Sequence record: NC_024146.1
Source: Enterobacteria phage 9g
DNA length: 56,702 nucleotides
Reading direction: 5' to 3' (one strand)
This document shows, in pieces, positions 43,788 to 56,667 of the stretch. A program made the position numbers and the translations under genes. Position 1 is the stretch's first letter; each line of letters starts with the position of its first letter. The notes under the pieces are model-generated. The model made no database searches. It was not told the DNA's origin and worked only from the letters and a program-made list of their open reading frames with translations.

Positions 43788-44170
43788 GATCCCGCGAAAA
43801 GCTAATTGATCACTTACTGCTCGAATGGCAATTGCACAGTTGCCCGCCGGGCAGTAAGACTCCAACAATTAAACATCTCCAGCACGTTAAAAAAGTCACT
43901 GGTAAGACTCCCTCCTTACTAGCAAAGTACGAATCCAGCTCCGTACCGCACGAACTCAGATACATTTACAAGTTATTTCTTGACTTTTATAATGGTGATA
44001 AATTCAGTTACAGCGAATTTAATGCCTGGCAAGATTATATAGATGTAGAACTTGATTTTAGAGAGCGTGAACTAATTCGGCAGATTTGTCTTGAACGGCA
44101 AGCATTTGATATTAGGCGTCAACAAGAACTTATGCAACACGCTCAAACCAATAATAAAGGAGGTAAATAA
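43359..44170 (+). CDS. Predicted gpGT-like frameshift fusion product (-1 shift at 43778-43784)
   Basis: The -1 frame continues ...FLRSREKLIDHLLLEWQLHSCPPGSKTP... through ORF 43832..44170 without a stop; matches the conserved G/GT arrangement upstream of tape-measure genes. Confidence 0.5.
43778..43784 (+). other. Candidate -1 programmed ribosomal frameshift site (T_TTT_TTC)
   Basis: Canonical X_XXY_YYZ heptamer one codon before the gpG-like stop. The -1 frame is open from here to 44170, ending at the tape-measure start (TAATG). Confidence 0.55.
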
Positions 44171-47100
44171 TGGCTGATGCAGCTGACATCGTCATTAGAG
44201 TCCGTGCTGAAGGTATTCAGAATGCTGAAACAGCACTGCGACGCTTGCAAGCGGCAGGTGTAAGAGTTGAGACTGTCAGCTCGCGTATGGAGAATGGTTT
44301 TCACCGTGCGGCTACAAGTGCTGACGCATTCCATCACGCCATTAGTGCAATCTATACGGTAATGACTGTAACCACACTGACATCTTACGTCGGTGGGCTT
44401 GCTAAGTTATCGGATGCGTGGCTGGACGTTACTAACAAACTGGCTAACGCCAACTCTGCAAACGAGCAGATGGTTGATATTCAAGAGCGAGTGTTTGGTA
44501 TTGCTCAAAGAACTCGTACGAGCCTGGAAGCTACGTCAACTCTTTATGCTCGTATGGAACGTTCACTGAACCAGTACGGTGTGACTGGTAGACAGGTTGC
44601 TCAGATCACTGAAACAATTAACAAGGCAATGATTGTTTCTGGTGCAACCACTGCGGAATCTACTGCTGCTATTATCCAGTTCTCACAGGGTCTGCAATCT
44701 GGTGTGTTACGTGGGGATGAATTCCGTTCTGTAATGGAACAAGCTCCTCGTCTTGGTAAGATGATTGCAGATGGTCTTGGTGTTGGTACTGCTGGTCTAC
44801 GTCAGATGGCTAACACTGGACAATTAACCGCTGATGTTGTTATTAACTCCATTTCTAAAGCTGCATCAACTATTGACGATGAGTTTAATCGTACAATACC
44901 AACGTTCTCTCAGCGAATGGAGATTGCGAATAACAACTTAATTAAATTCGCGGGAACGTCAACCTCGGTACAAACTGTGGTCAATTCAATGGGTGCTGTC
45001 ATTGAAACTGCTACAGACCACCTCACCTTGCTGTCTAATACCGCAATCGGTGTTGCTGCTATTGTTGGCGGTCGAATGATTACCGCCCTGGCCGCACAAA
45101 TTGCAGCATTCATAAAGCTCAACGCGATACAAGCAAGTAGCTCGGCCATAAATATCAAGACCATTGATGGTATCACAAGATCCGCAGTAGCTCGATATAA
45201 TGAAGCACAAGCAACGTTAGCACAGGTTGCAGCCGAGCGCACCAAGATTCAGGCGGCATTGCAAGCCGATCAAACGTATTATAAAGGTATAGCGACACTC
45301 AACGCATACATGCAGAATACGCGGCAGGTACGCGAAGCTACGGAAGCGGTTGCTATTGCCCAGACTACCATGCAGGCACGTATGGCTGCCGCAACTGTAG
45401 CGTCCCGTGTGCTTACTGTCACCATGACAGGCCTGCGGACGGTAATGGGCTTGATGGGTGGACCTGTAGGTGTGGTCACATTGGCTGCTGCCGCATGGTT
45501 CATGTGGAGTCAAAACAGTAAACAAGCTGTCCAGGATGCACAGAACCTTGCTTCCTCTCAAGAAGATTTAAAGAACAAGTTAAAAGAAACAACTCTTGAA
45601 CAACAACGAGCTCTTAGTGTTCAGTTGCAACGTGCCGCTATTACGTTGGACGAACAGATTGCCTCTGAAAACAAGGAGTTGGCTGAATTAAAGAACCGTC
45701 TCAGCACAGTAACGCGCTATCAAGCTGAAGCAACTGAAGGAACAAGCGAGTATAACCGACTCACTAAAGACCGTAAGGAATTAGAAGGTGATGTTGCTAT
45801 CAAAATTGGTGAAATATCCACTCTTGAGCAAAAAGCACAACAGATTAAATCTAACTTAACGACTGTACTGAACAATTTAACTGCTGCTGTAATGGGTCAT
45901 ACTGATGCACTCAAAGCAGAAAACGAGCAGTTATCTATTAATATCAGTTCTGCTGCCGGTCGTTCGCAGGAGCTAGTTAGTGCAATCCAAGCTCAGAATA
46001 ATGAGTTAGATGTTGCTCAATTGAAGATGTCTGGTCATGCACGACAAGCGAACATCTTAAGAGATGCTCAGACAGCTCTTGGTAAGAAGTATAAAGAAAA
46101 CGAATCATTCATCAAGAGCTATATTAGCGGTCATGCTGACGCAACTGCTGTATTAACGGATGAGCAACGAGGACTGGTTGAATTTATCAACTTGTCTGGA
46201 AAGAACTATGACGCTCAGAAGAAGATCCATGAACAGCAAGAAAAACAACGTCAGAGTAAGAAAGACAATAAAGCTGCCATACGCTATGCTGAACAATGGG
46301 ATAAAGCATATGAACGCGTAGAAGCGCGTGGTGCTACTGGTTTACAGCGTCTTAACTTACAGCAAGAAGCTGAAGTTCGTGCCATTCGTAATAAAGCTGA
46401 ACGAGCTAAAGCATCTGAAGAAGAATTACAGAACGCGTTACTGGCTATCCAACGTAAGTATGATCTGAAACGTGCAGAACTGGCAGAGCAGTACAAGCCA
46501 GGCGTTGCAATGGTGCGTGCGTACAAAGAAGCCCAACAAGAAATAAATCAGTTGCTTGAAGCTGGTTTATTGACAGAGCAACAGGCATATACTGCTAGAT
46601 TGAATTTGCAGGCGGATTATTATACAAAACGTGCGCAGATGCAATCTGAATTGAACCCTGCTGGACAAGCTGCTGATCAAGAAGCTGCTGAACTTGCAAC
46701 ACTTAAATCCCAGTATGAAACAGCGATTGAATTAGCTGCTGGCAAAGAAGAGCAACTAACCGCTATCAAAGAGAACTATGAGCGCATACGACACGACATT
46801 CAGTTGAAGTACGCTCAGAAGCAGATGCTCGCACAGAACCAGACGGCAATGGCTTACATTGAAAGTCTGAGCTCTATGGCTGGGTCAATGACCACAATTA
46901 TGGCGGCTGCTGGTGATGACGCTAGTGGTGCTTACAGGGTTATGTTCGCACTGTCTAAATCGTTCAGTATTGCTCAGTCGATGTTAAGTATTACCACCGC
47001 ACTATCGCAGGTGTTAGCAGATCCGACAGCATTGACACCGATGCAAAAGATGGCCAACTATGCAACTATTGCGGCCGCTGGTGCTAACATTATTTCGACA

Positions 47101-47430
47101 TTATCCAGTGTTGCTCTTACTGGTATGGCTCACGATGGTATAGCCAACGTTCCAGAAGAGGGTACGTGGCTTCTCAATAAAGGTGAACGAGTTCTTAGTC
47201 CCCAACAGAACGCGGACTTTACTAACTTTATGAAGGGTCAATCAAATACTGGCAATAATTCGGGTGGGGGTGTTATCATTAACCAGAACTTTAACATCCA
47301 GGGTAATGGTGATGCAGCTTTGAAAAGCGCAGTTCAACAAGCTGCGAGAGATGGCGCCCAGCAAGGTTATAACATGGTACTCCAAGACTTTGCTAACCGT
47401 GGATCAATTAGAAAATTAGCGTTGGGGTAA
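44170..47430 (+). CDS. Tail tape measure protein
   Basis: 1086 aa, largely alpha-helical and repetitive, AAGGAGG upstream, located between the G/GT chaperone and the distal tail genes. Confidence 0.9.
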   Translation: MADAADIVIRVRAEGIQNAETALRRLQAAGVRVETVSSRMENGFHRAATSADAFHHAISAIYTVMTVTTLTSYVGGLAKLSDAWLDVTNKLANANSANEQMVDIQERVFGIAQRTRTSLEATSTLYARMERSLNQYGVTGRQVAQITETINKAMIVSGATTAESTAAIIQFSQGLQSGVLRGDEFRSVMEQAPRLGKMIADGLGVGTAGLRQMANTGQLTADVVINSISKAASTIDDEFNRTIPTFSQRMEIANNNLIKFAGTSTSVQTVVNSMGAVIETATDHLTLLSNTAIGVAAIVGGRMITALAAQIAAFIKLNAIQASSSAINIKTIDGITRSAVARYNEAQATLAQVAAERTKIQAALQADQTYYKGIATLNAYMQNTRQVREATEAVAIAQTTMQARMAAATVASRVLTVTMTGLRTVMGLMGGPVGVVTLAAAAWFMWSQNSKQAVQDAQNLASSQEDLKNKLKETTLEQQRALSVQLQRAAITLDEQIASENKELAELKNRLSTVTRYQAEATEGTSEYNRLTKDRKELEGDVAIKIGEISTLEQKAQQIKSNLTTVLNNLTAAVMGHTDALKAENEQLSINISSAAGRSQELVSAIQAQNNELDVAQLKMSGHARQANILRDAQTALGKKYKENESFIKSYISGHADATAVLTDEQRGLVEFINLSGKNYDAQKKIHEQQEKQRQSKKDNKAAIRYAEQWDKAYERVEARGATGLQRLNLQQEAEVRAIRNKAERAKASEEELQNALLAIQRKYDLKRAELAEQYKPGVAMVRAYKEAQQEINQLLEAGLLTEQQAYTARLNLQADYYTKRAQMQSELNPAGQAADQEAAELATLKSQYETAIELAAGKEEQLTAIKENYERIRHDIQLKYAQKQMLAQNQTAMAYIESLSSMAGSMTTIMAAAGDDASGAYRVMFALSKSFSIAQSMLSITTALSQVLADPTALTPMQKMANYATIAAAGANIISTLSSVALTGMAHDGIANVPEEGTWLLNKGERVLSPQQNADFTNFMKGQSNTGNNSGGGVIINQNFNIQGNGDAALKSAVQQAARDGAQQGYNMVLQDFANRGSIRKLALG

Positions 47431-48023: not shown

Positions 48024-48608
48024 ATGATATTTAGTCCGTTCAGTGACTCTTTATTGGACTCTATGGAACAACCTAGCGTCACGATGATAATTGCAGTTGC
48101 AATTTATTTTGATTCAGGAACAACAAGAGTCCACTCTGGTACTGGCGTATTATCTATTGATGGTCAGACATTCGTTGGTGTCGGTAATCTTGGTGATGTA
48201 GGTGGTGTCACGGAAGAGAATACTACCAGTGCAAGTACGATGTCTCTTACATTAAGTGGACTTGATATGACACTTGTTGGGCAGACACTCAATGAAAACT
48301 GCGTAGGGCGCGATGTGAAATGTTATATCGCTACTATGGATGAAAGAGGGCAGGTGACTAACGCCAACGTCCTCTTTGAAGGTTTTATTAGTGATACTGC
48401 AATGCAAGCGGGCACAACAAACGCTATCACATATACGGTGTCAAATATATTTGAAAAGTGGTCTTCCGGTATACCGGATCGTTATACGGATGAAAGCCAA
48501 CAACGATTACATCCAGGAGATCGTTTCTTTAGATATGTTGCACAAATGGCAGAGCGTTCAATCTATTGGGGAAGTAAAAAAGATGCACCAGGATTCAGTT
48601 ACCAGTAA
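48024..48608 (+). CDS. Minor tail protein (gpL-like position)
   Basis: 194 aa, GAGGAG upstream. Confidence 0.6.
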   Translation: MIFSPFSDSLLDSMEQPSVTMIIAVAIYFDSGTTRVHSGTGVLSIDGQTFVGVGNLGDVGGVTEENTTSASTMSLTLSGLDMTLVGQTLNENCVGRDVKCYIATMDERGQVTNANVLFEGFISDTAMQAGTTNAITYTVSNIFEKWSSGIPDRYTDESQQRLHPGDRFFRYVAQMAERSIYWGSKKDAPGFSYQ

Positions 48609-49017
48609 GACTCCAGGTTGGCAGATGCGCTTGCTAACCACAGTTAACTCGCTCAAAGAAGTACCTTTTCAATGGGGCCAAAACGATTGCTGCATCTTTG
48701 CCGCTAAGTGTATTGATGCTCAATATGGTACAAAGATTGCGGATGAAGTTGTCGGTCAGTATGACTCAGAGATTAGCTGTAAACGCTTTATGCTAAAACG
48801 AGTCAAAGACACATCCCTAGCAATGGTTCTGGATTCATTCCTACCAGTTCGTGTAGACAGAAAGTTTGCTCAACGCGGTGACGTAGTGACATTTAACGGG
48901 GATCTTGGCTTAACTGCCGGGGTACTGTGGACAGGTTGCATCTGGGCGATGGGTCCGAATGGTGTTGTTACCTTTAAACTGGCGGACGTCGAAATCACAG
49001 ACGCGTGGAGGGTGTAA
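48583..49017 (+). CDS. Tail assembly protein with NlpC/P60-like motif (gpK-like)
   Basis: Start moved to the internal ATG at 48583. Contains QNDCCIFAAKCI (cf. NlpC/P60 DCSG Cys) and RGDVVTFNGDLG. Confidence 0.55.
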   Translation: MHQDSVTSKTPGWQMRLLTTVNSLKEVPFQWGQNDCCIFAAKCIDAQYGTKIADEVVGQYDSEISCKRFMLKRVKDTSLAMVLDSFLPVRVDRKFAQRGDVVTFNGDLGLTAGVLWTGCIWAMGPNGVVTFKLADVEITDAWRV

Positions 49018-52000
49018 ATGCCACCAGCAATAATTGGAGCTGTAGTTGCTATCGGTGCAGCGGCTGGGGCAGCGGCAGGTATTCTCCCAGCCACTGCCGC
49101 GCTTGTGATTGGTATTGCTGCCAGTGCCGCTGGAGCTCTACTTACAAAAACTCAGAGCTTTAACTTTGACTCCTATACAGCTCAGAGTGAGCGTAAACAG
49201 GTTATTCGTGCTGCTGCTGCATCCCGGACAGTGATTTATGGGACGACTGTATCTAGTGGTGTACTTGTATTTGCAGAAGAAGAACCGGGAGAACAGGATA
49301 CCAATAAACATGGTGAGAACCATGAAAAGCTGACGTTGGTTCTTGCATTGGCAGGCCATCCGCTGACAGGCGTAGGACAAGTGTGGTTAGGTGATGACGC
49401 TATCGAGACTTTTGGTGATAAAGCGAAGTGTATAATACATAATAATCCTACTACCGTTAGTCAGGATATGTTGAATCGTTGCCCATCGTGGAAAAGGGAC
49501 ATGATTGGTAAAGGTATTTGCTGGATGCAATTAAACCTTGTGTTCGATTCTGAAAAATTCCCGTCTGGTCTACCTAACGTTAAATGCCTTAAGAAAGGTC
49601 GTAAGGTATTAGATCCTAGAACTGGTAATATGGTATTTAGCAATAACGCAGCTTTAGTCATTCTGGATTACTTACGAGTGTACTTAAAACGCTCTGATGA
49701 CGCAATTCTTTGGGACCAGTTCAAAGAAGCTGCTAATATCTGTGATGAAAGTGTAAAGAACGCGGACAACACATACGAACCTCGTTACACCATAAATGGT
49801 GAGTTTGATATTGATGAAGCTCCCTCTAAGATTTTGGAGGATATGCTTGACGCTTGTGGTGGCGAGTTAACTTACATTGGCGGTAAACATGGTATTCTTG
49901 TTGGTGCATATTATGGTCCACCTGAATTAACACTGGATACAAGTTGTATTGCTGGTGACATTAAAATCACACCTGAAACAGCTTTCAAAGAACGCACAAA
50001 TACAATCACTGGTACTTATATAGATCCTCTGCAAAATTATCAGGAAGCTGACTTCCCTCCTGTAAGTGTCGCAGAATGGATACAACAAGACGGCCAAGAG
50101 ATCACACAGGACGTAGACTATCGTTTTGTAACAAGCCCATACCAGGCACAACGTCTGTCTAACTTAACATTGAAACGCAAACGTATTGGCCGTTCCATAG
50201 AGATACCATGTAACATGCGTGGGTATCGTTTCCGTCCAGGTATGTACGTTTACGTTGACATTCCTAACATTGGAATGAACAAAGTAGAGATGCGTGTTAT
50301 TAAGTGGCAGTTTGATCCGAAAGGTGGTGTTACTGTAACTGTACGCCAAGACTTCCCGGCCTTATGGGACGATGCAATTGGCAAACCTGTAGAGCGTCCA
50401 GATTTAGTGGATTTGCCTACTGGTGGCGCTATGCAACCTCAGAATTTGCAGTATGAAGTCTTGCAGATCAGCGACGTTGTACAAGGTGTGCTGTCGTGGC
50501 AAAATATAATGGCTGTAGCCTACAACAACGTAGTAATTAAGAAAGATGGTACTACCGTATTGACGGTGCAAGTACCGGGCCAGAGCACGCGGATTACAGG
50601 GCTTATTCGCGGCGCTTATACAGCACATGTGAAAGCTGTAGCGTATACCGGCGCAACAAGTCCAGAAGCGTATCTTGAATTCAATATTCAAGCACCTTCC
50701 GCTCCTACGTCTGTTGAAGTAACGCAAGGCTACTTCGCAGTGACATTGAAACCAAAATCTGCGGATCTAGCGAACGTTAGTACACAATATGATTTCTGGA
50801 CGTCCGGTGAAACAAGATTACCATCCACTGCTGTAGACGTGGTAGAGAGACAAGCCACTCGTGCTGGTATGGGTACAACGTGGACTTCAGAAGGGTTGCT
50901 CAATGACCACACTTATTACTGGTATGTGCGGGCAATTAATGCTTTTGGTTCTTCTGCATTTGTAGAGGTGGCTGCAAGATGCTTCACAGATGCTGCTGGC
51001 CTTATTCCGCAGATTGACACAGAGTTCAAAGGTACTAACACCTATAAAGAACTTATGGCTGAGATTGGAAGCGTCAGCGATGGTGTCAAGAGTTATGTGG
51101 ACGACCAAATTGAAACCTCTGAAGGGCGCTTAACTCAAACAATAGATACAGTGCAACAATCTGTAGTTCTTGTTGACGGTAAAGTGCAGCAACAAGGCGT
51201 CACAATCAATGAACAGGGGCAGTTAATAGATGCTCAGGGTAAGTTGATTCAAACAAACGGCCAACAGATTAATGTGGTCAAAGCTACCGTACAGGAAGTC
51301 AGTAAGTCCGTTGTAGATCTTGAAGGTAACGTTAACGCTCAGTGGGGCGCCAAGATCCAGGTGGATAATAAAGGCCAAAAATACGTTGCCGGTATTCAGT
51401 TAGGTATGGAAGGTTCCGGTGGAGCTATCCAATCTTACTTTATGGTCAACGCCAACAACTTTGCTATCTATAACCCAACTGACAGTACAGCGGATTTAGC
51501 ATTTGCAGTTAAGAACGGTCAAGTGTTCATGAAGGCAACGTTCATTGAGAACGGGTCTATTGATAACGCTAAGATTGGTAACTATATTCAATCTAACAAC
51601 TATGTAGCTGGTTCCGCAGGTTGGAAGTTGAATAAAGCTGGTGACGCTGAATTCAATAACGTAACTGTCAGAGGTGTGGTATATGCTAGTGGCGGTAGAT
51701 TTACTGGTGAGATACAAGCAACAAGCGGTAAGTTCAAAGGAACTGTAGAAGCGCAAAGTTTTATCGGGGACATTGCAAATATGCACACAGGGACGAATGT
51801 GAGTCGGACTAATGATGGATCTTTAGAAAAGGTAATGACTTATACGGATTCATCCAGTTCTGGGCACGCAAGACACGTCTGTGTTATAGCAAACGTTAAA
51901 GGTAATGGTGCGGGAATAATCAATATCAACGGTAGTGAGAGTGGTTCATCCGTGCAAGACACAGAGAGACTTATCATGCATTCTGCGGTTGTGACAGGAC

Positions 52001-52107
52001 CAAACGTGACAGTTCGTATTAAAGTGTCCGCTCAAAATGGCAGGGGTGCGTCCATTTCTTCTCCTACTATCATAGTATCACACGGATCTGGATCATTCAC
52101 AGGTTAA
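49018..52107 (+). CDS. Tail tip/host specificity protein (lambda gpJ-like) with N-terminal gpI-like hydrophobic Gly/Ala-rich segment
   Basis: 1029 aa. YYWYVRAINAFGSSAFVEV and KYVAGIQLGMEGSGG...NNFAIYNP resemble lambda J (YYFYIRSVNTVGKSAFVEA; HYVAGIGLSMED...NRIAFIDP) as remembered. N-terminus begins MPPAIIGAVVAIGAAAGAAAGIL. Confidence 0.85.
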   Translation: MPPAIIGAVVAIGAAAGAAAGILPATAALVIGIAASAAGALLTKTQSFNFDSYTAQSERKQVIRAAAASRTVIYGTTVSSGVLVFAEEEPGEQDTNKHGENHEKLTLVLALAGHPLTGVGQVWLGDDAIETFGDKAKCIIHNNPTTVSQDMLNRCPSWKRDMIGKGICWMQLNLVFDSEKFPSGLPNVKCLKKGRKVLDPRTGNMVFSNNAALVILDYLRVYLKRSDDAILWDQFKEAANICDESVKNADNTYEPRYTINGEFDIDEAPSKILEDMLDACGGELTYIGGKHGILVGAYYGPPELTLDTSCIAGDIKITPETAFKERTNTITGTYIDPLQNYQEADFPPVSVAEWIQQDGQEITQDVDYRFVTSPYQAQRLSNLTLKRKRIGRSIEIPCNMRGYRFRPGMYVYVDIPNIGMNKVEMRVIKWQFDPKGGVTVTVRQDFPALWDDAIGKPVERPDLVDLPTGGAMQPQNLQYEVLQISDVVQGVLSWQNIMAVAYNNVVIKKDGTTVLTVQVPGQSTRITGLIRGAYTAHVKAVAYTGATSPEAYLEFNIQAPSAPTSVEVTQGYFAVTLKPKSADLANVSTQYDFWTSGETRLPSTAVDVVERQATRAGMGTTWTSEGLLNDHTYYWYVRAINAFGSSAFVEVAARCFTDAAGLIPQIDTEFKGTNTYKELMAEIGSVSDGVKSYVDDQIETSEGRLTQTIDTVQQSVVLVDGKVQQQGVTINEQGQLIDAQGKLIQTNGQQINVVKATVQEVSKSVVDLEGNVNAQWGAKIQVDNKGQKYVAGIQLGMEGSGGAIQSYFMVNANNFAIYNPTDSTADLAFAVKNGQVFMKATFIENGSIDNAKIGNYIQSNNYVAGSAGWKLNKAGDAEFNNVTVRGVVYASGGRFTGEIQATSGKFKGTVEAQSFIGDIANMHTGTNVSRTNDGSLEKVMTYTDSSSSGHARHVCVIANVKGNGAGIININGSESGSSVQDTERLIMHSAVVTGPNVTVRIKVSAQNGRGASISSPTIIVSHGSGSFTG

Positions 52108-52138: not shown

Positions 52139-52372
52139 TTAGTAGTCTATAACACAGTTTGAAGGGCTCCCAATTCTTCGGTATTCGTGAGCAATCTCCT
52201 GGCACCATTGCCCCGTCATTGGGAGCTTTTCGGTATCGTAAATTAAAGAACCGTTATCGTCCCGATCCAATGGTTTTGGGATAACGCCGGAATTCGGTTT
52301 ACCGGTATCTAAGCCATTACCACATGCGGTGAGGGATAAACAAAATGTGAGCATAATCAGAGCGCGTTTCAT
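52139..52372 (-). CDS. Small lipoprotein, candidate Llp/Cor-like superinfection-exclusion factor
   Basis: 77 aa. Signal peptide and lipobox [17 protein letters not shown]; AAGGAG 6 nt upstream; the only minus-strand gene in the structural block, between tip and fibre genes. Confidence 0.65.
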
Positions 52373-52453
52373 TGGGACTCCTTTGTGTTGTTGACAGGGT
52401 TGAATTTCAATATACTTGTTGTGTTGAGTAAGCTAAATAAAGCGAGAAACATT

Positions 52454-55400
52454 ATGGCAATTCGTTTACATGGTATTCTAGTTGATGGATTGAATAAACC
52501 AATCGTCAATGCAAACGTCTTCTTACTTGCACGAAGCAATACTATTGTAGTTCTAGGTGGAAGTAAAGCGGTATTTAAGACTGATTCGCAAGGTGCTTAC
52601 GACGTCACAGTCAACGCCGGGCATTATGTGGTTATCATTGGACCGGAAGGTAAGGAACCGTATAAAGCGGGTGACATTGTAATCTATGCAGATAGCCAGA
52701 ACGGTTCACTTAACGCATATCTTACTAAATGGGCTCCAGAAGAAACTACACCTGAAATACTTCATGAGATAAAGCAACTGGTGGCTAATTCTGAGCAATT
52801 CGCATTGCAGGCGTCTGAATCCGCTGCTAATGCTAAGAAGAGTGAGCTTAACGCGGAGACAAGTAAAAACTCTGCTGCAACGGATGCAGCGTCAGCTCTG
52901 CTATCAAAACAGGAATCTGCCGCTAGTGCGTCTTCCGCATTGCAATCCAAGAACGCTGCGGCTGGTTCTGCTACATCAGCTCAACAATCTCTTACTGCTG
53001 TGCAAGGACTCAAAGTTGAAGTCCAACAATTAAAAACCGACACGCAGCATATTAAAGAAGAGGGCGTCGCTGAAGTAACAGCTCTCAAAAATGCTGCAAC
53101 TACAGCGGCTAACAATGCTAAAGCATCAGAAACTGCATCTGCTAATAATGCGACTTTGGCTGATACTAAAGCAAAGGAAGCGTCTGTAAGTGCAACCACT
53201 GCTGATCAAGCGAAAGTGGCTGCTGAGGCAGCAAAGGACGCATCCGAAGCAAGTGCGGTTGAATCTGCTACTTCTGCTGGTGAATCGCAGACCTCAGCTA
53301 ATGCAGCTAAGGCAAGCGAAACGGTTGCAACACAGAAGGCAGCTTCGGCCTCTACGTCTGAAACTAATGCGGCAGCTTCCGCTCAGACTGCGACTAACAA
53401 AGCTGGTGAGTCTGCCGCTAGTGCTACCGCAGCTAAGGCAAGCGAAACTAATGCTAAGACGTCAGAAACTAATGCTGGTACATCAGCTGGAAGATCTGAG
53501 TCCGCTGCTTTGCGCTCAGAAGCTGCTGCTGAACGTGCGGAAGAGATTGCTGGTGCAATTGGTCTTGAAGATGCGACTTTGACTGTTAAAGGTATCGTTC
53601 GTCTTAGCAATGATACTGACAGCACTGCTGAAGACCTGGCGGCTACACCAAAGGCTGTTAAAACAGTCATGGACGTTGCTAATACTAAAGCTCCGTCAAA
53701 TAGTCCTGTTCTAACTGGTGTACCAACGGCACCAACTCCAGCACCTGAAGTTAATAACAATCAGATTGCTACAACTCAGTTTGTACACCAAATTATAAGC
53801 GCACTTATTGGTGATGCACCAGACGCGTTAAACACTCTGAAAGAGTTAGCTGACGCTCTTGGTGATGATCCGAACTTTGCTACAACGATGACCACACTTA
53901 TTAACAGTAAGTTGGCCAAAGATCAGAACGGTGCTGACATTCCTAATAAGCAACTGTTTATTGATAACGTTGGTTTACGTGAGACTGTTAACTTAGCTCT
54001 CGGTGCATTGCAGAAGAATCAGAACGGTGCGGATATACCGGATAAAGGCGTCTTCCTTAATAACATCAATGCTGCCAGCAAGACGGATATGGCCGCTAAA
54101 CGTGGAATGAAGTTTTCGCGTGTAGATGCACCAGCGGGAGTTGAAGCAGACAAGTTTTATCCTGTGGTCATTCGTCGTTGTTCTGGATTCAACAGTGAAT
54201 TAGCATCAAGGGTAACGATAAGTACAGATTCAAGAATGTCAAGCCATAGGATGAACAACTGTGATTTCAATGGTTTTGTGATGCCTGGTGGATGGACCGA
54301 CCGCGGACGATATGCTTATGGAATGTTCCACGCATATACTGCAAATGAGCGTGCTATTCATTCTATTATGATGGGTGACTCGGATGATGATCTGTGCTCT
54401 GTGTTCTATGTTGAAGGTGAAGCGTTCCCTATCTCTGTATATGTAGAAGAAGGCTTATTTGTTGTTGTACCGTCCGCCGACTATGTTGTCGGACAAACGA
54501 CTTACAAATGGGGTGCTACAGACCCTAGAACAGAATGTGTGGCCGCTAAAACTATACTTGATTTCTGCAATGGTAGAGGATTCTATAGTTCGCACGCACT
54601 CCTCACAAATGCAGATATTAGCGGTGCGAAAATCTACGCCAACGGTGAAATCGTAGCTCGCGGTGAGAATCAAGTTCGTATGATTGGTGGGGACTACGGT
54701 GCATTATGGCGCAATGACGGTGCCATGACCTATCTCTTATTTACCGCTAAAGGTGATCAATACGGTGGTTGGAACGATTTAAGACCATTTATGATTGATA
54801 ACGCTACTGGTGAGTTTACCATCGGCACTAAATTGAACGCCAATCAAGGTGTGAATGGTAATGCGTCAAGTGCTACGAAGTTACAAACAGCGCGTAAAAT
54901 TGGTGGCGCCTCATTCGATGGTACTGCTGACGTCAATCTTCCAGGTGTTAACATTCAGGGTAATCAGAACACAACTGGTAACGCGGCAACTGCCACCAAA
55001 CTACAGACAGCAATAAAAATATCTGGTGTTTCGTTTGATGGTTCTACTGATATCACTTTAACCGCCGGGCATGTAGATGCTTTTGCCAGAAGGGCAACGG
55101 GTACATATTCCGATGCGGATGGTGGCGTTCCCTGGAATTCCGAATCAGGCGCTTACAATGTCACCCGCTCTGCCGACAGCTATATATTGGTTAACTTCTA
55201 TATCGGAGTCGGAAGTTGCCGGACCCTGCAGATGAAGGCGCATCACAGAAATGGAGGTCTGTTCTACCGTTCCTCAAGAGATGGCTACGGTTTCGAAGAA
55301 GATTGGGACCAAATTTACACTAAAAAGAATCCACCTCCGGCTGGTGAAAGTTTACCTGTAGGTGTTCCATTACCGTGGCCTACGGATACACCTCCGTCCG

Positions 55401-56089
55401 GTTATATTGTAATGCAGGGTCAATCCTTCGATAAAGCTGCATACCCGAAACTGGCGGCTGCATACCCAACGGGCGTGCTTCCAGACATGCGTGGTCAAAC
55501 TATCAAAGGTAAACCAGCAAGCGGTCGCGACGTACTTTCTACGGAAGATGACGGTGTGAAGTCACATACTCACACTGCGTCTACTGCATCTGTCGATCTT
55601 GGAAGCAAGACAACTTCCAGCTTTGACTATGGTACTAAGACAAGTTCGAGTTTTGACTATGGCACCAAATCTGCTGCTTCAGCTGGTGCGCATACGCATA
55701 GTCTGAGCGGTTCAACAGGCTCAGCTGGTGCTCATGCCCACACAGGTGGTTTAAGGATGAACAGTGGTGGTTGGGACCAATACGGATCAATAACCGTTCC
55801 GGCAAGTGTATCCACGGTTAAAGGAACCAACCAGCAGGGAGCTGGTTATTGTGCGAAAACAGACAGTCAGGGCAACCACACTCACTCTTTATCTGGTACT
55901 GCTGCTTCGGCTGGAGCTCATACACATAACGTGGCCGTTGGTGCTCATACGCATACTGTAGGTATTGGTGCTCATACCCATACAGTCGCTTTAGGTTCAC
56001 ATAGCCACGGTGTTACAGTTAACGCAACTGGTAACACGGAGAACACCGTTAAGAACGTTGCATTCAACTATATTGTGAGGGCTGCTTAA
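52454..56089 (+). CDS. Side/long tail fibre protein with C-terminal His-rich HxH repeats
   Basis: First ATG at 52454 (GTG at 52385 possible). Ala/Ser-rich helical repeat region; C-terminal [53 protein letters not shown] repeats; a Tfa-like gene follows. Confidence 0.85.
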
Positions 56090-56667
56090 TGTCTTTTGAA
56101 ATGAGTAATGAAGACCAGACTGTAACCGTGTATGACTACTCCAGGGATACGGGCGAATATGTGGGAACCCGTGAGGCGTATGTGGTAGCCAACACAGGTC
56201 TTCCAGCATGTTGTACTGATATGGAGCCTCCAGTGGCTCCAGAAAATCATGTGGCAATTTTTAAAATAGACAGCCAAGTATGGATTTTACGTGAGGACCA
56301 TCGAGGGAAAGTTGTATACGATAAAAATACAGGACTTCCTTTAGTGATAACCACTATTGGATCTCTCCCGGATAATGTGACCTTTATCGCTCCCAACGGC
56401 GAGTATATGAAGTGGAACGGTAATATGTGGGTGAACGATCCGGATGCACAACGTGCTAAGTCGGTTGCGGATGCAACACAACACAAAACAGATCTTCTTA
56501 ATTTAGCAGATTATAAAATCAGTATTCTACAAGATGCTGTGACTTATAATCTAGCTACTGACGAAGAAAGTTCGATGCTGGAATCGTGGAGAAAGTTTCG
56601 TGTACTTGTGAACCGCGTAAACGAAAACGATCCACAGAATATTATCTGGCCTGAGACTCCAGAATAA
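56089..56667 (+). CDS. Tail fibre assembly protein (Tfa-like chaperone)
   Basis: 192 aa immediately after the tail fibre gene, start overlapping its stop (TAATG); typical Tfa size and position. Confidence 0.65.
   Translation: MSFEMSNEDQTVTVYDYSRDTGEYVGTREAYVVANTGLPACCTDMEPPVAPENHVAIFKIDSQVWILREDHRGKVVYDKNTGLPLVITTIGSLPDNVTFIAPNGEYMKWNGNMWVNDPDAQRAKSVADATQHKTDLLNLADYKISILQDAVTYNLATDEESSMLESWRKFRVLVNRVNENDPQNIIWPETPE

Follow-up and report, generated by a model that had tools for sequence, protein, structure and literature searches.

The tail-tip module of Enterobacteria phage 9g (NC_024146.1; the 56,702-nucleotide stretch analyzed here is called the window below) encodes a K-like protein of the DUF6950 family, which has the NlpC/P60 fold and an invariant Asp-Cys pair but neither histidine of the catalytic triad, and a J-like central tail-tip protein whose N-terminus resembles the C-terminal half of lambda gpI. 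On balance, we favor the view that this module is a tail tip built on the plan of RcGTA/R4C and of T5, in which a gpI-type plug forms part of J and is accompanied by a non-canonical, assembly-linked NlpC/P60 protein.

Family and fold of the K-like protein

A preliminary description, made from the letters of the window, had called this product a gpK-like protein with the NlpC/P60 cysteine motif QNDCC and without the usual catalytic His after the segment RGDVVTF. Its coordinates and both motifs are exact; they lie within FQWGQNDCC and AQRGDVVTF (48868-48894). The reading frame that opens with the ATG at 48583 encodes 144 residues and ends at 49017. A program-made list of open reading frames starts it at a TTG at 48376, and the annotation of phage FritzHoffmann starts it at 48625. 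Start 48583 is better supported than 48625 because the N-terminal motif of the family, [R/K]-x-x-[D/N/G]-W-[P/E/Q], is encoded upstream of 48625 as KTPGWQ, and because 144 residues is the length in the majority of database gene calls. Residue numbers below refer to the 130-residue frame, as modeled; adding 14 gives those of the 144-residue protein.

Residues 9-144 of the 144-residue protein matched Pfam DUF6950 (PF22262) with an E value of 9.6e-39 and 133 bits against a cutoff of 27, covering profile positions 2-134 of 134. In an exhaustive HMMER search the family had 1346 cluster representatives at E<=1e-3. The strength of the match together with this number of representatives argues against a chance assignment. 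The protein also matched phrog_2134, which carries the label 'unknown function'. The Pfam NLPC_P60 model did not match it, NCBIfam gave no tail-peptidase match, and a search of the PDB sequences with the protein alone returned noise only.

The structure was predicted with AlphaFold 2. With a 138-sequence alignment the predicted local distance difference test score (pLDDT) was 97.5; from the single sequence it was 43.6 only. The model matched the NlpC/P60 fold in Foldseek (E 5e-5), and in a viral structure library NlpC/P60 proteins were the best matches once the DUF6950 proteins were passed. It has the papain-like alpha+beta arrangement that defines this fold, with Cys22 at the N-terminus of helix 22-34, which packs on an antiparallel sheet. 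The likeness to gpK holds for the NlpC/P60 half of that protein: hhalign aligned the DUF6950 profile with the gpK family over 88 columns (E 5e-4, probability 31%), which span the Cys and His motifs. It does not extend to the JAB/MPN domain. The Prok-JAB model, which lambda gpK (JAB plus NlpC/P60) matches, found nothing in the K-like protein, and neither Pfam nor BLASTP (E 52) gave a direct similarity to gpK.

Absence of the catalytic histidines

Conservation was assessed in 138 DUF6950 representatives, 25-70% identical in sequence. Asp21 and Cys22 are invariant, the Cys being present in 138 of 138, and Phe15, Trp17 and Gly18 are conserved in at least 90%. An Asp directly before the Cys is also found in the canonical motif, xDCSG. 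The family keeps the other scaffold motifs of NlpC/P60 proteins as well: FxWG, Asp-Cys at the helix start, RGD in strand one, the HxG-strand Gly and W-R-V at the C-terminal end.

The histidines are missing. The translation of the K-like protein contains no His past residue 2. Profile alignment placed Thr97 opposite the catalytic His of three reference groups, namely the H of GRHVGI in MepS, of PNHAAIY in the gpK family and of FAHVGIL in R4C. The family column at Thr97 reads T56/A39/C7/S7, with His in 0 of 138. Ala108 falls at or beside the third triad position, which is His in MepS; in the alignment to R4C, the second His lies opposite a gap that immediately precedes Ala108. This column reads A59/S16/V14/F13, again with no His. 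Compared with MepS/Spr, CwlO, LytE and SagA, to which identity is about 20%, the catalytic His is replaced by Thr or Ala and the third residue by Ala, Ser or Val. Set against the features that mark MEROPS family C40, the protein has the nucleophile Cys and lacks both the catalytic His of the HxGI strand and a third polar triad residue (His, Asn, Gln or Glu).

Two other sites were considered and rejected. The only His-rich column in the family is position 20 (N49/H43 of 138), and His20 was dismissed as a replacement base on account of this mixed column and the Asn found there in this phage. A Fe-S or metal site suggested by the CC..C pattern was dismissed at the family level, where Cys22 alone is invariant and Cys23 and Cys29 are present in 62% and 43%, respectively.

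In 20 of the 138 members there is no His anywhere in the domain. The alignment excludes a Cys-His dyad within the protein across the DUF6950 family, and not just in this phage. Because both triad histidines are absent family-wide, DUF6950 cannot be a canonical Cys-His-His peptidoglycan endopeptidase. Profile alignment and structure prediction thus bear out the preliminary description of the cysteine motif without its usual His, and extend it from one phage to the family.

GenBank names for DUF6950 homologs include 'peptidoglycan hydrolase' (Hafnia phage yong3), 'putative peptidase' (Cruim01), 'peptidase' (SA126VB), 'CHAP domain protein' (Mangalyan) and 'putative tail fiber protein'. With the triad histidines missing, the enzymatic names are unsupported.

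The N-terminus of the J-like protein

The J-like protein starts MPPAIIGAVVAIGAAAGAAAGILPATAALVIGIAASAAGALL. It is uncharged at positions 1-43, and its first 42 residues are hydrophobic and rich in Gly, Ala and Ile. The maximum of the Kyte-Doolittle 19-residue mean is 2.26, as compared to 1.78 in the hydrophobic part of lambda gpI. The hydrophobic residues are followed by a ..VIYG..SG..FAEEE strand and then by an LAGHPLxG motif. The hydrophobic segment is kept in most of the diverse J-like relatives, and Gly75 and Gly81 of the strand motif are invariant in 14 diverse sequences. A Sec signal peptide was rejected, since a segment with no charge in residues 1-43 has no basic n-region.

For the comparison with gpI, one profile was made from 13-16 diverse J-like N-termini and another from 12 gpI sequences (nine phages and three database clusters). 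The gpI search itself gave relatives of at least 69% identity only; phage records therefore served as the source of diverse gpI and gpK sequences. Residues 27-96 of J aligned collinearly with residues 141-215 of gpI over 67 columns in hhalign (E 4.4e-5, probability 69%, score 31.3). The alignment runs through the second hydrophobic helix (J 27-44 with gpI 141-156) and a spacer to ..VIYGTTVSSGVLVF.. against ..PVLYGEMRVGSRVVS... Sixty column shuffles that preserved zones and composition scored at most 22.3 (mean 11.3, standard deviation 2.7), and the reversed profile scored 9.9.

Two other tip proteins aligned with the same region. When the J N-terminal profile was run against the PDB, residues 261-311 of T5 pb3 were the sole match (E 0.015), and hhalign aligned it with pb3 262-317 at E 1e-4. 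The best site of the gpI profile on pb3, 262-276, comprises the same residues as the J match. The N-terminus of the R4C megatron aligned collinearly with that of J (E 2.3e-3). Single-sequence searches were less informative: the J N-terminus against the PDB gave noise only, tblastn of the gpI C-terminal 67 residues found gpI-family genes only and no intermediate J-fused forms, and a search for related loci with J 44-200 found close relatives only. A word-indexed search with J 1-160 gave 4 fragments, probably because low-complexity words dominated it.

The preliminary description had taken this N-terminus to resemble the hydrophobic C-terminal part of gpI and had suggested an I-J fusion. The resemblance stands as a claim of moderate strength on profile similarity, and the ubiquitin-like domain of gpI is absent: Pfam Lambda_tail_I gave no match in J 1-110 or 1-200 at E<=10, with a control E value of 1e-28 for gpI 14-97. 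Since Lambda_tail_I covers only the ubiquitin-like residues 14-97 of gpI, the missing Pfam match says nothing against the gpI claim. The layout has more in common with the RcGTA/R4C type than with a lambda layout that was modified, and the difference from lambda may reflect either fusion or fission. We propose that J residues 1-42 are a plug and outer-membrane insertion element equivalent to H1/H2 of gpI and to the RcGTA iris/penetration domain.

The rest of the protein is of the lambda J kind. Phage-tail_3, Ig_J, Ig_J_second and Phage_Tail_Tip domains of Pfam follow each other at residues 321-423, 475-560, 562-667 and 758-894. The protein matched phrog_31, 'central tail fiber J' (E 3.7e-180), and lambda J in BLASTP (E 2e-30); its score with NCBIfam lambda_TipJ was far below the model cutoff, so it is no equivalog. 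The segment LTLVLALAGHPLTGVGQVWLGDD at the start of the J body has counterparts at about 295-311 of pb3 (AEGEIDG) and in the R4C megatron (SLGEGPLNG). From comparison by eye, its counterpart in lambda J would be at about 22-50 (ISEGPIEG).

Comparison with other tail tips

RcGTA and R4C share with this phage the four-gene order that follows the tape measure gene (Dit g12, hub g13, peptidase g14 and megatron g15), and in them, too, a small NlpC/P60 protein is encoded directly before the large tip protein. The R4C peptidase gp15 matches both NLPC_P60 (E 5e-6) and DUF6950 (E 2.3e-5), and hhalign of the DUF6950 alignment against it gave a probability of 90% with an E value of 1.4e-6 over 100 columns. 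R4C gp15 keeps Cys, His and His (FAHVGIL, VLHTYD), whereas DUF6950 has neither His. By these profile matches, DUF6950 is a His-less branch of NlpC/P60 tail proteins, and the RcGTA/R4C tail peptidase is its closest characterized relative. RcGTA g14 degrades peptidoglycan and is probably located in the tail lumen, and its deletion abolishes tails (PMC7296036).

The R4C megatron begins with hydrophobic Gly-rich helices, a ..ISGRVAVAGTVIWA.. strand and SLGEGPLNG, and the J-like protein has these elements in the same order. Residues 1-46 of the RcGTA megatron are the iris/penetration domain (PMC7296036). In RcGTA and R4C this segment is seen inside the tail lumen, where it forms an iris or plug that later crosses the outer membrane (PMC7296036, PMC10276861). 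The Dit and the hub-like protein here gave no match to Pfam DUF2460, Gp84_N or BR0599 at E<=0.1, whereas the R4C proteins match strongly, and the body of the tip protein is lambda-J-like here (Ig_J, Phage_Tail_Tip) and not megatron-like. RcGTA-like modules and this one have in common the small NlpC/P60 protein and, after it, a tip protein that opens with a hydrophobic segment of the iris/penetration type; a DUF2460 Dit and a Gp84_N/BR0599 hub are not shared.

Lambda also has an NlpC/P60-fold gene between the hub gene and the tip gene. The K-like gene has the position described for TAPK, between L-like and I/J genes, as well as the NlpC/P60-type domain. Tail assembly in lambda requires gpK, which has not been detected in virions and whose location is unknown (PMC10721106, PMC12617516). 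Residues 101-223 of gpI form two helices predicted to be transmembrane, a plug, and strands that extend the sheets of gpJ; gpI seals the tube and holds the tape measure C-terminus (PMC11101478, PMC10721106). In order and motif, the first ~96 residues of J resemble this C-terminal half (H1, H2, plug and beta-strands), and the domain order within the J-like protein is the lambda gene order, I then J. The phage differs from lambda in that the K-like protein lacks JAB/MPN and the triad histidines, Lambda_tail_I is absent, and the putative gpI-C module is covalently part of J. The distance from the LAGHP motif to the first confidently aligned J segment is also much shorter here (residue 171 aligns with lambda J 217). 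TAPI-TAPJ fusions and NlpC/P60-only TAPK variants were already noted in 2006 (Iyer, Burroughs and Aravind, PMC1779556). Those TAPI cases were found through the ubiquitin-like domain, whereas here the TAPI-C module alone would be present and its NlpC-like partner lacks the triad histidines.

The other half of gpK was seen in Shewanella phage KASIA (843-1686), which has a stand-alone 114-residue JAB/MPN protein with an HSH motif and no NlpC/P60 domain. Its gene lies directly upstream of a gpI homolog, and this homolog has the ubiquitin-like part. KASIA and the DUF6950 phages together show that the gpK halves do occur separately, and this small sample suggests that JAB tracks the ubiquitin-like domain.

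In T5 pb3 the J-like segment directly follows the plug, and the hub (gpL-like) domains are carried in the same chain. The pb3 plug is a beta-hairpin, and that of J here would be a pair of hydrophobic helices. The plug of pb3 refolds and anchors in the membrane, with the hairpin tip residues 233-236 in the outer membrane, and the muralytic activity of T5 is attributed to the tape measure C-terminus (PMC10038345). In the T5 stretch that we examined, pb3 follows the distal tail protein gene with no other gene in between, hence no NlpC/P60 gene is found there. The I-J layout is a link in a series that runs from lambda (L, I and J separate) through this phage and RcGTA (I+J) to T5 (L+I+J), and it is not surprising.

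The hub-like protein is the positional counterpart of lambda gpL and RcGTA g13 without their Fe-S (4-Cys) domain. It has 2 Cys, as compared to 7 in the R4C hub (BR0599 domain) and 8 in lambda gpL. All 12 hub proteins found beside DUF6950 genes were short (178-225 residues) with 0-2 Cys, so they cannot hold the 4-Cys Fe-S cluster of gpL and of the R4C hub. Loss of the hub Fe-S site and loss of the peptidase His go together in this sample, which may be an effect of shared lineage.

Distribution of the module

The order Dit, short hub, DUF6950 and J-like was found at 12 diverse loci, in PY54, Vibrio, Pseudomonas, Lokivirus and Roseobacter phages, in rV5-like myoviruses and in three unrelated metagenome contigs. 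Phage records with DUF6950 number 346 and those with the J N-terminal region 351, and their breakdowns by organism name are nearly identical. DUF6950 thus accompanies this J type in ~350 phage records, which makes the layout a commonplace one in a large group of phages whose sequences were already available; both observed features, the His-less K-like protein and the hydrophobic start of J, are real.

In Escherichia phage V18 (1293-4935) and in rV5-like records of ~130-140 kb, the DUF6950 gene lies directly upstream of a J-like gene, and two genes of siphophage Dit and hub sizes precede it in the rV5-like phages. The annotated V18 protein has 141 residues, and tblastn matches to the rV5-like group were about 45% identical. 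The J-like protein of the rV5-like myoviruses and of one metagenome contig has no hydrophobic helices, yet it keeps the YG strand and its DUF6950 neighbor. Retention of DUF6950 beside a helix-less J-like protein speaks for a role in the assembly of the J-like protein rather than in the membrane step. BASEL records name the rV5-like J-like gene 'lateral tail fibre protein'.

One metagenome protein (P0072, 650 residues) combines DUF6950 (residues 24-143) with a J-like N-terminus in a single open reading frame, where HRLVYGRVRVSG and AAHITKG follow the hydrophobic helices. It may be a natural fusion or the result of a missed stop or frameshift. Eighteen records labeled 'Campylobacter phage' (135-143 kb; among them D1, A147, C7 and A135) carry rV5-like tail genes identical to those of Escherichia phages; these records may be mislabeled or contaminated.

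Gene order and neighboring genes

A 4.7-kb region around the module is 92-95% identical in nucleotide sequence to the Nonagvirus phages JenK1, HdK1 and FritzHoffmann (Queuovirinae), and by this similarity the window is that of a Nonagvirus-like coliphage, a siphophage. The order of the tail-tip genes is tape measure, Dit (distal tail protein), short hub, K-like and J-like, followed by a lateral fiber and its assembly protein (Table 1). Dit, directly downstream of the tape measure gene, is the first of the four module genes. It gave no Pfam DUF2460 match, and the short hub-like protein gave no Pfam match. The TAA stop of the DUF6950 gene and the ATG of J are adjacent, at 49015-49020.

Table 1. 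Coordinates of the tail-tip genes and of the segments discussed (positions in the window; J residues numbered from its first codon)
Feature	Position	Strand	Basis or remark
Tape measure gene	44170-47430		Pfam TMP_3
Distal tail protein (Dit), 196 aa	47433..48023	+	PHROG phrog_1302 'distal tail protein', E 2.8e-70
Short hub-like tail protein, 194 aa	48024..48608	+	PHROG phrog_2048 'tail protein', E 7.4e-93
K-like protein, DUF6950 family, NlpC/P60 fold, 144 aa (130 aa from 48625)	48583..49017	+	
F-x-W-G-x-x-D-C motif	48667..48690	+	nucleophile-position Cys = Cys22 (130-aa) / Cys36 (144-aa), codon 48688-48690
Thr97 codon, canonical catalytic His position	48913..48915	+	hhalign to MepS, gpK family, R4C peptidase
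Ala108 codon, at or beside third triad position (His in MepS)	48946..48948	+	hhalign FVHAS (MepS) with IWAMG
J-like central tail-tip protein, 1029 aa	49018..52107	+	
Hydrophobic Gly/Ala-rich segment, residues 1-42, two helices split by Pro24	49018..49143	+	charge, hydropathy, hhalign
Conserved strand motif AAAASRTVIYGTTVSSGVLVFAEEE, residues 65-89	49210..49284	+	equivalent to gpI C-terminal PVLYGEMRVGSRVVS and pb3 262-282
LTLVLALAGHPLTGVGQVWLGDD, residues 105-127, start of J body	49330..49398	+	profile-aligned to pb3 and R4C megatron
C-terminal receptor-binding region of J, mosaic	51541..52107	+	nucleotide identities

The last ~190 codons of J are 90-93% identical in nucleotide sequence to the 3' end of TipJ in E. 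coli prophages, that of Nissle 1917 included, and 83% identical to HK97 J. The match of J to its nearest Nonagvirus relatives ends at about 51625-51770. The receptor-binding domain of J was apparently acquired from lambdoid phages by exchange.

The next open reading frame after J (52139-52372) is on the other, - strand and encodes 77 residues with a lipoprotein signal; it matches phrog_12984, 'lipoprotein' (E 8e-54). As a neighbor of the receptor-binding end of J, it may encode a superinfection-exclusion lipoprotein like Llp or Cor. FritzHoffmann has a different gene, of 966 bp, at this site. In the region 52385-56667, the lateral tail fiber (1234 residues) has a prophage tail-fiber N-terminal domain, a T4 gp34-type trimerization domain, a Collar domain and His-rich GAHTH repeats near the C-terminus. 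A lambda-type tail fiber assembly protein (Caudo_TAP) follows it.

Proposed mechanism and alternative explanations

In the mechanism that we favor, the N-terminal ~100 residues of J would be a built-in plug of the gpI-C/iris type, made of two helices, a linker and a strand running into the J body. By analogy with gpI, the pb3 plug and the RcGTA/R4C iris, three copies of J would seal the exit of the tail tube and hold the tape measure C-terminus, and after receptor binding their plug segments would be released and inserted into the outer membrane. The DUF6950 protein would be an assembly-linked partner of the J-like protein, in analogy to gpK and g14, both of which are needed for tails. Its invariant Cys may have a non-canonical role, in substrate or partner binding or in thiol chemistry for which the base comes in trans. 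Neither the gpI ubiquitin-like domain nor the gpK JAB domain is present, and the JAB-ubiquitin-like processing pair, as proposed (PMC1779556), would be dispensable when the gpI-C module is made as part of J. We give only a small chance to a further version, in which DUF6950 is a repurposed scaffold whose Cys works without His, through a composite site formed on docking to the J-like protein or the hub or through a covalent thiol intermediate. With a composite site, peptidoglycan may be cut, or a tail protein such as the tape measure processed, in the assembled tip only.

Several observations weigh against the favored reading. On the side of J, the likeness to gpI rests on ~25 well-aligned residues and the hydrophobic helices. 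BLASTP of J 1-201 against gpI found nothing (E 5), and Pfam gave no gpI match. The broader 16-sequence profile lowered the score to 23 (E 1.5e-3), and hhalign probabilities ranged from 17 to 69%. The score comes largely from Gly/Ala-rich hydrophobic columns, and with the helices left out the E value was 0.005-0.014. The resemblance might then be convergent or compositional, and the hydrophobic stretch a membrane anchor or export signal. We consider this very unlikely. The score exceeded those of all shuffles and of the reversed profile, and the order and spacing (helices, ~25 residues, YG strand, ~30 residues, xxGxPxxG) are the same in gpI plus gpJ, pb3, the R4C megatron and the J-like protein. 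The uncharged start is unlike a Sec signal peptide, and the equivalent RcGTA/R4C segment lies in the tail lumen (PMC7296036, PMC10276861).

On the side of DUF6950, no experiment on any member and no solved structure was found, the PDB holds no member, and the family name was not found in the literature searched. A Cys present in every member is unusual for a non-enzyme and leaves a catalytic role possible, and a compensating residue may lie near Cys22, the candidates being the nearly invariant Tyr46, or Arg84 and Asp86. Pfam found no peptidoglycan hydrolase domain in the tape measure protein, so the phage may still need DUF6950 for cell-wall passage. Virion proteomics of phage Vid5, with 11 proteins and no Dit named, is too shallow to show whether DUF6950 is present. 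These points bear on the idea that DUF6950 is an active, virion-carried peptidoglycan hydrolase that lies in the tail lumen above the plug and is ejected to the periplasm like RcGTA g14. Its Cys22 would then work with an unconventional partner (Tyr46, Asp86, water or a residue of another protein) in place of the His-His pair. The full set of scaffold motifs and the homology to the R4C/RcGTA peptidase agree with it, as does the peptidoglycan-degrading activity of g14 itself, whose presumed place is the tail lumen (PMC7296036). We regard this explanation as unlikely, with both triad histidines absent family-wide and some members having no His in the domain at all. DUF6950 is also kept beside the rV5-like J-like protein, which is annotated as a lateral tail fiber in BASEL and would then be away from the DNA conduit, and the GenBank enzyme names that might be cited in favor of a hydrolase are unvalidated annotations. 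We know of no NlpC/P60 or CHAP enzyme that works without His. At the other extreme, DUF6950 might be a dead pseudoenzyme, a structural brick or chaperone in which the Cys and Asp are kept to cap and pack the central helix. This would agree with the loss of both the general base and the third triad residue and with the behavior of gpK, which is absent from lambda virions and acts in assembly (PMC10721106). Non-catalytic NlpC/P60 domains do exist, and RipD, whose PDB title names it as such, was among the Foldseek matches. RipD, however, has presumably lost the nucleophile Cys too, whereas here the Cys and Asp21 are the most conserved residues, and structural positions usually tolerate Ser or Ala across so many sequences of this divergence. 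We therefore think a pure pseudoenzyme quite unlikely as well.

Significance

The layout of this module relates to the known tips of RcGTA and T5, and interest centers on the role of a His-less, Cys-invariant NlpC/P60 protein in tail tips. The function of K-type proteins is open even for lambda, in which gpK is essential for tails while its location and the wall-crossing enzyme are unidentified (PMC12617516, PMC11101478). The DUF6950 family offers a natural separation-of-function set, in which the fold and the Cys are kept and the His pair, the JAB domain and the ubiquitin-like domain are dropped. The task conserved among K-type proteins would then be to construct the tip at and around the gpI/J junction, and not to cut peptidoglycan. 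The enzymatic GenBank names are probably wrong and should not steer searches for virion-associated lysins. If the Cys does act without His, this would be a catalytic arrangement new to the papain-like NlpC/P60 superfamily, and at least about 350 sequenced phages would have it, among them those with the rV5-like modules whose J-like protein is annotated as a lateral fiber.

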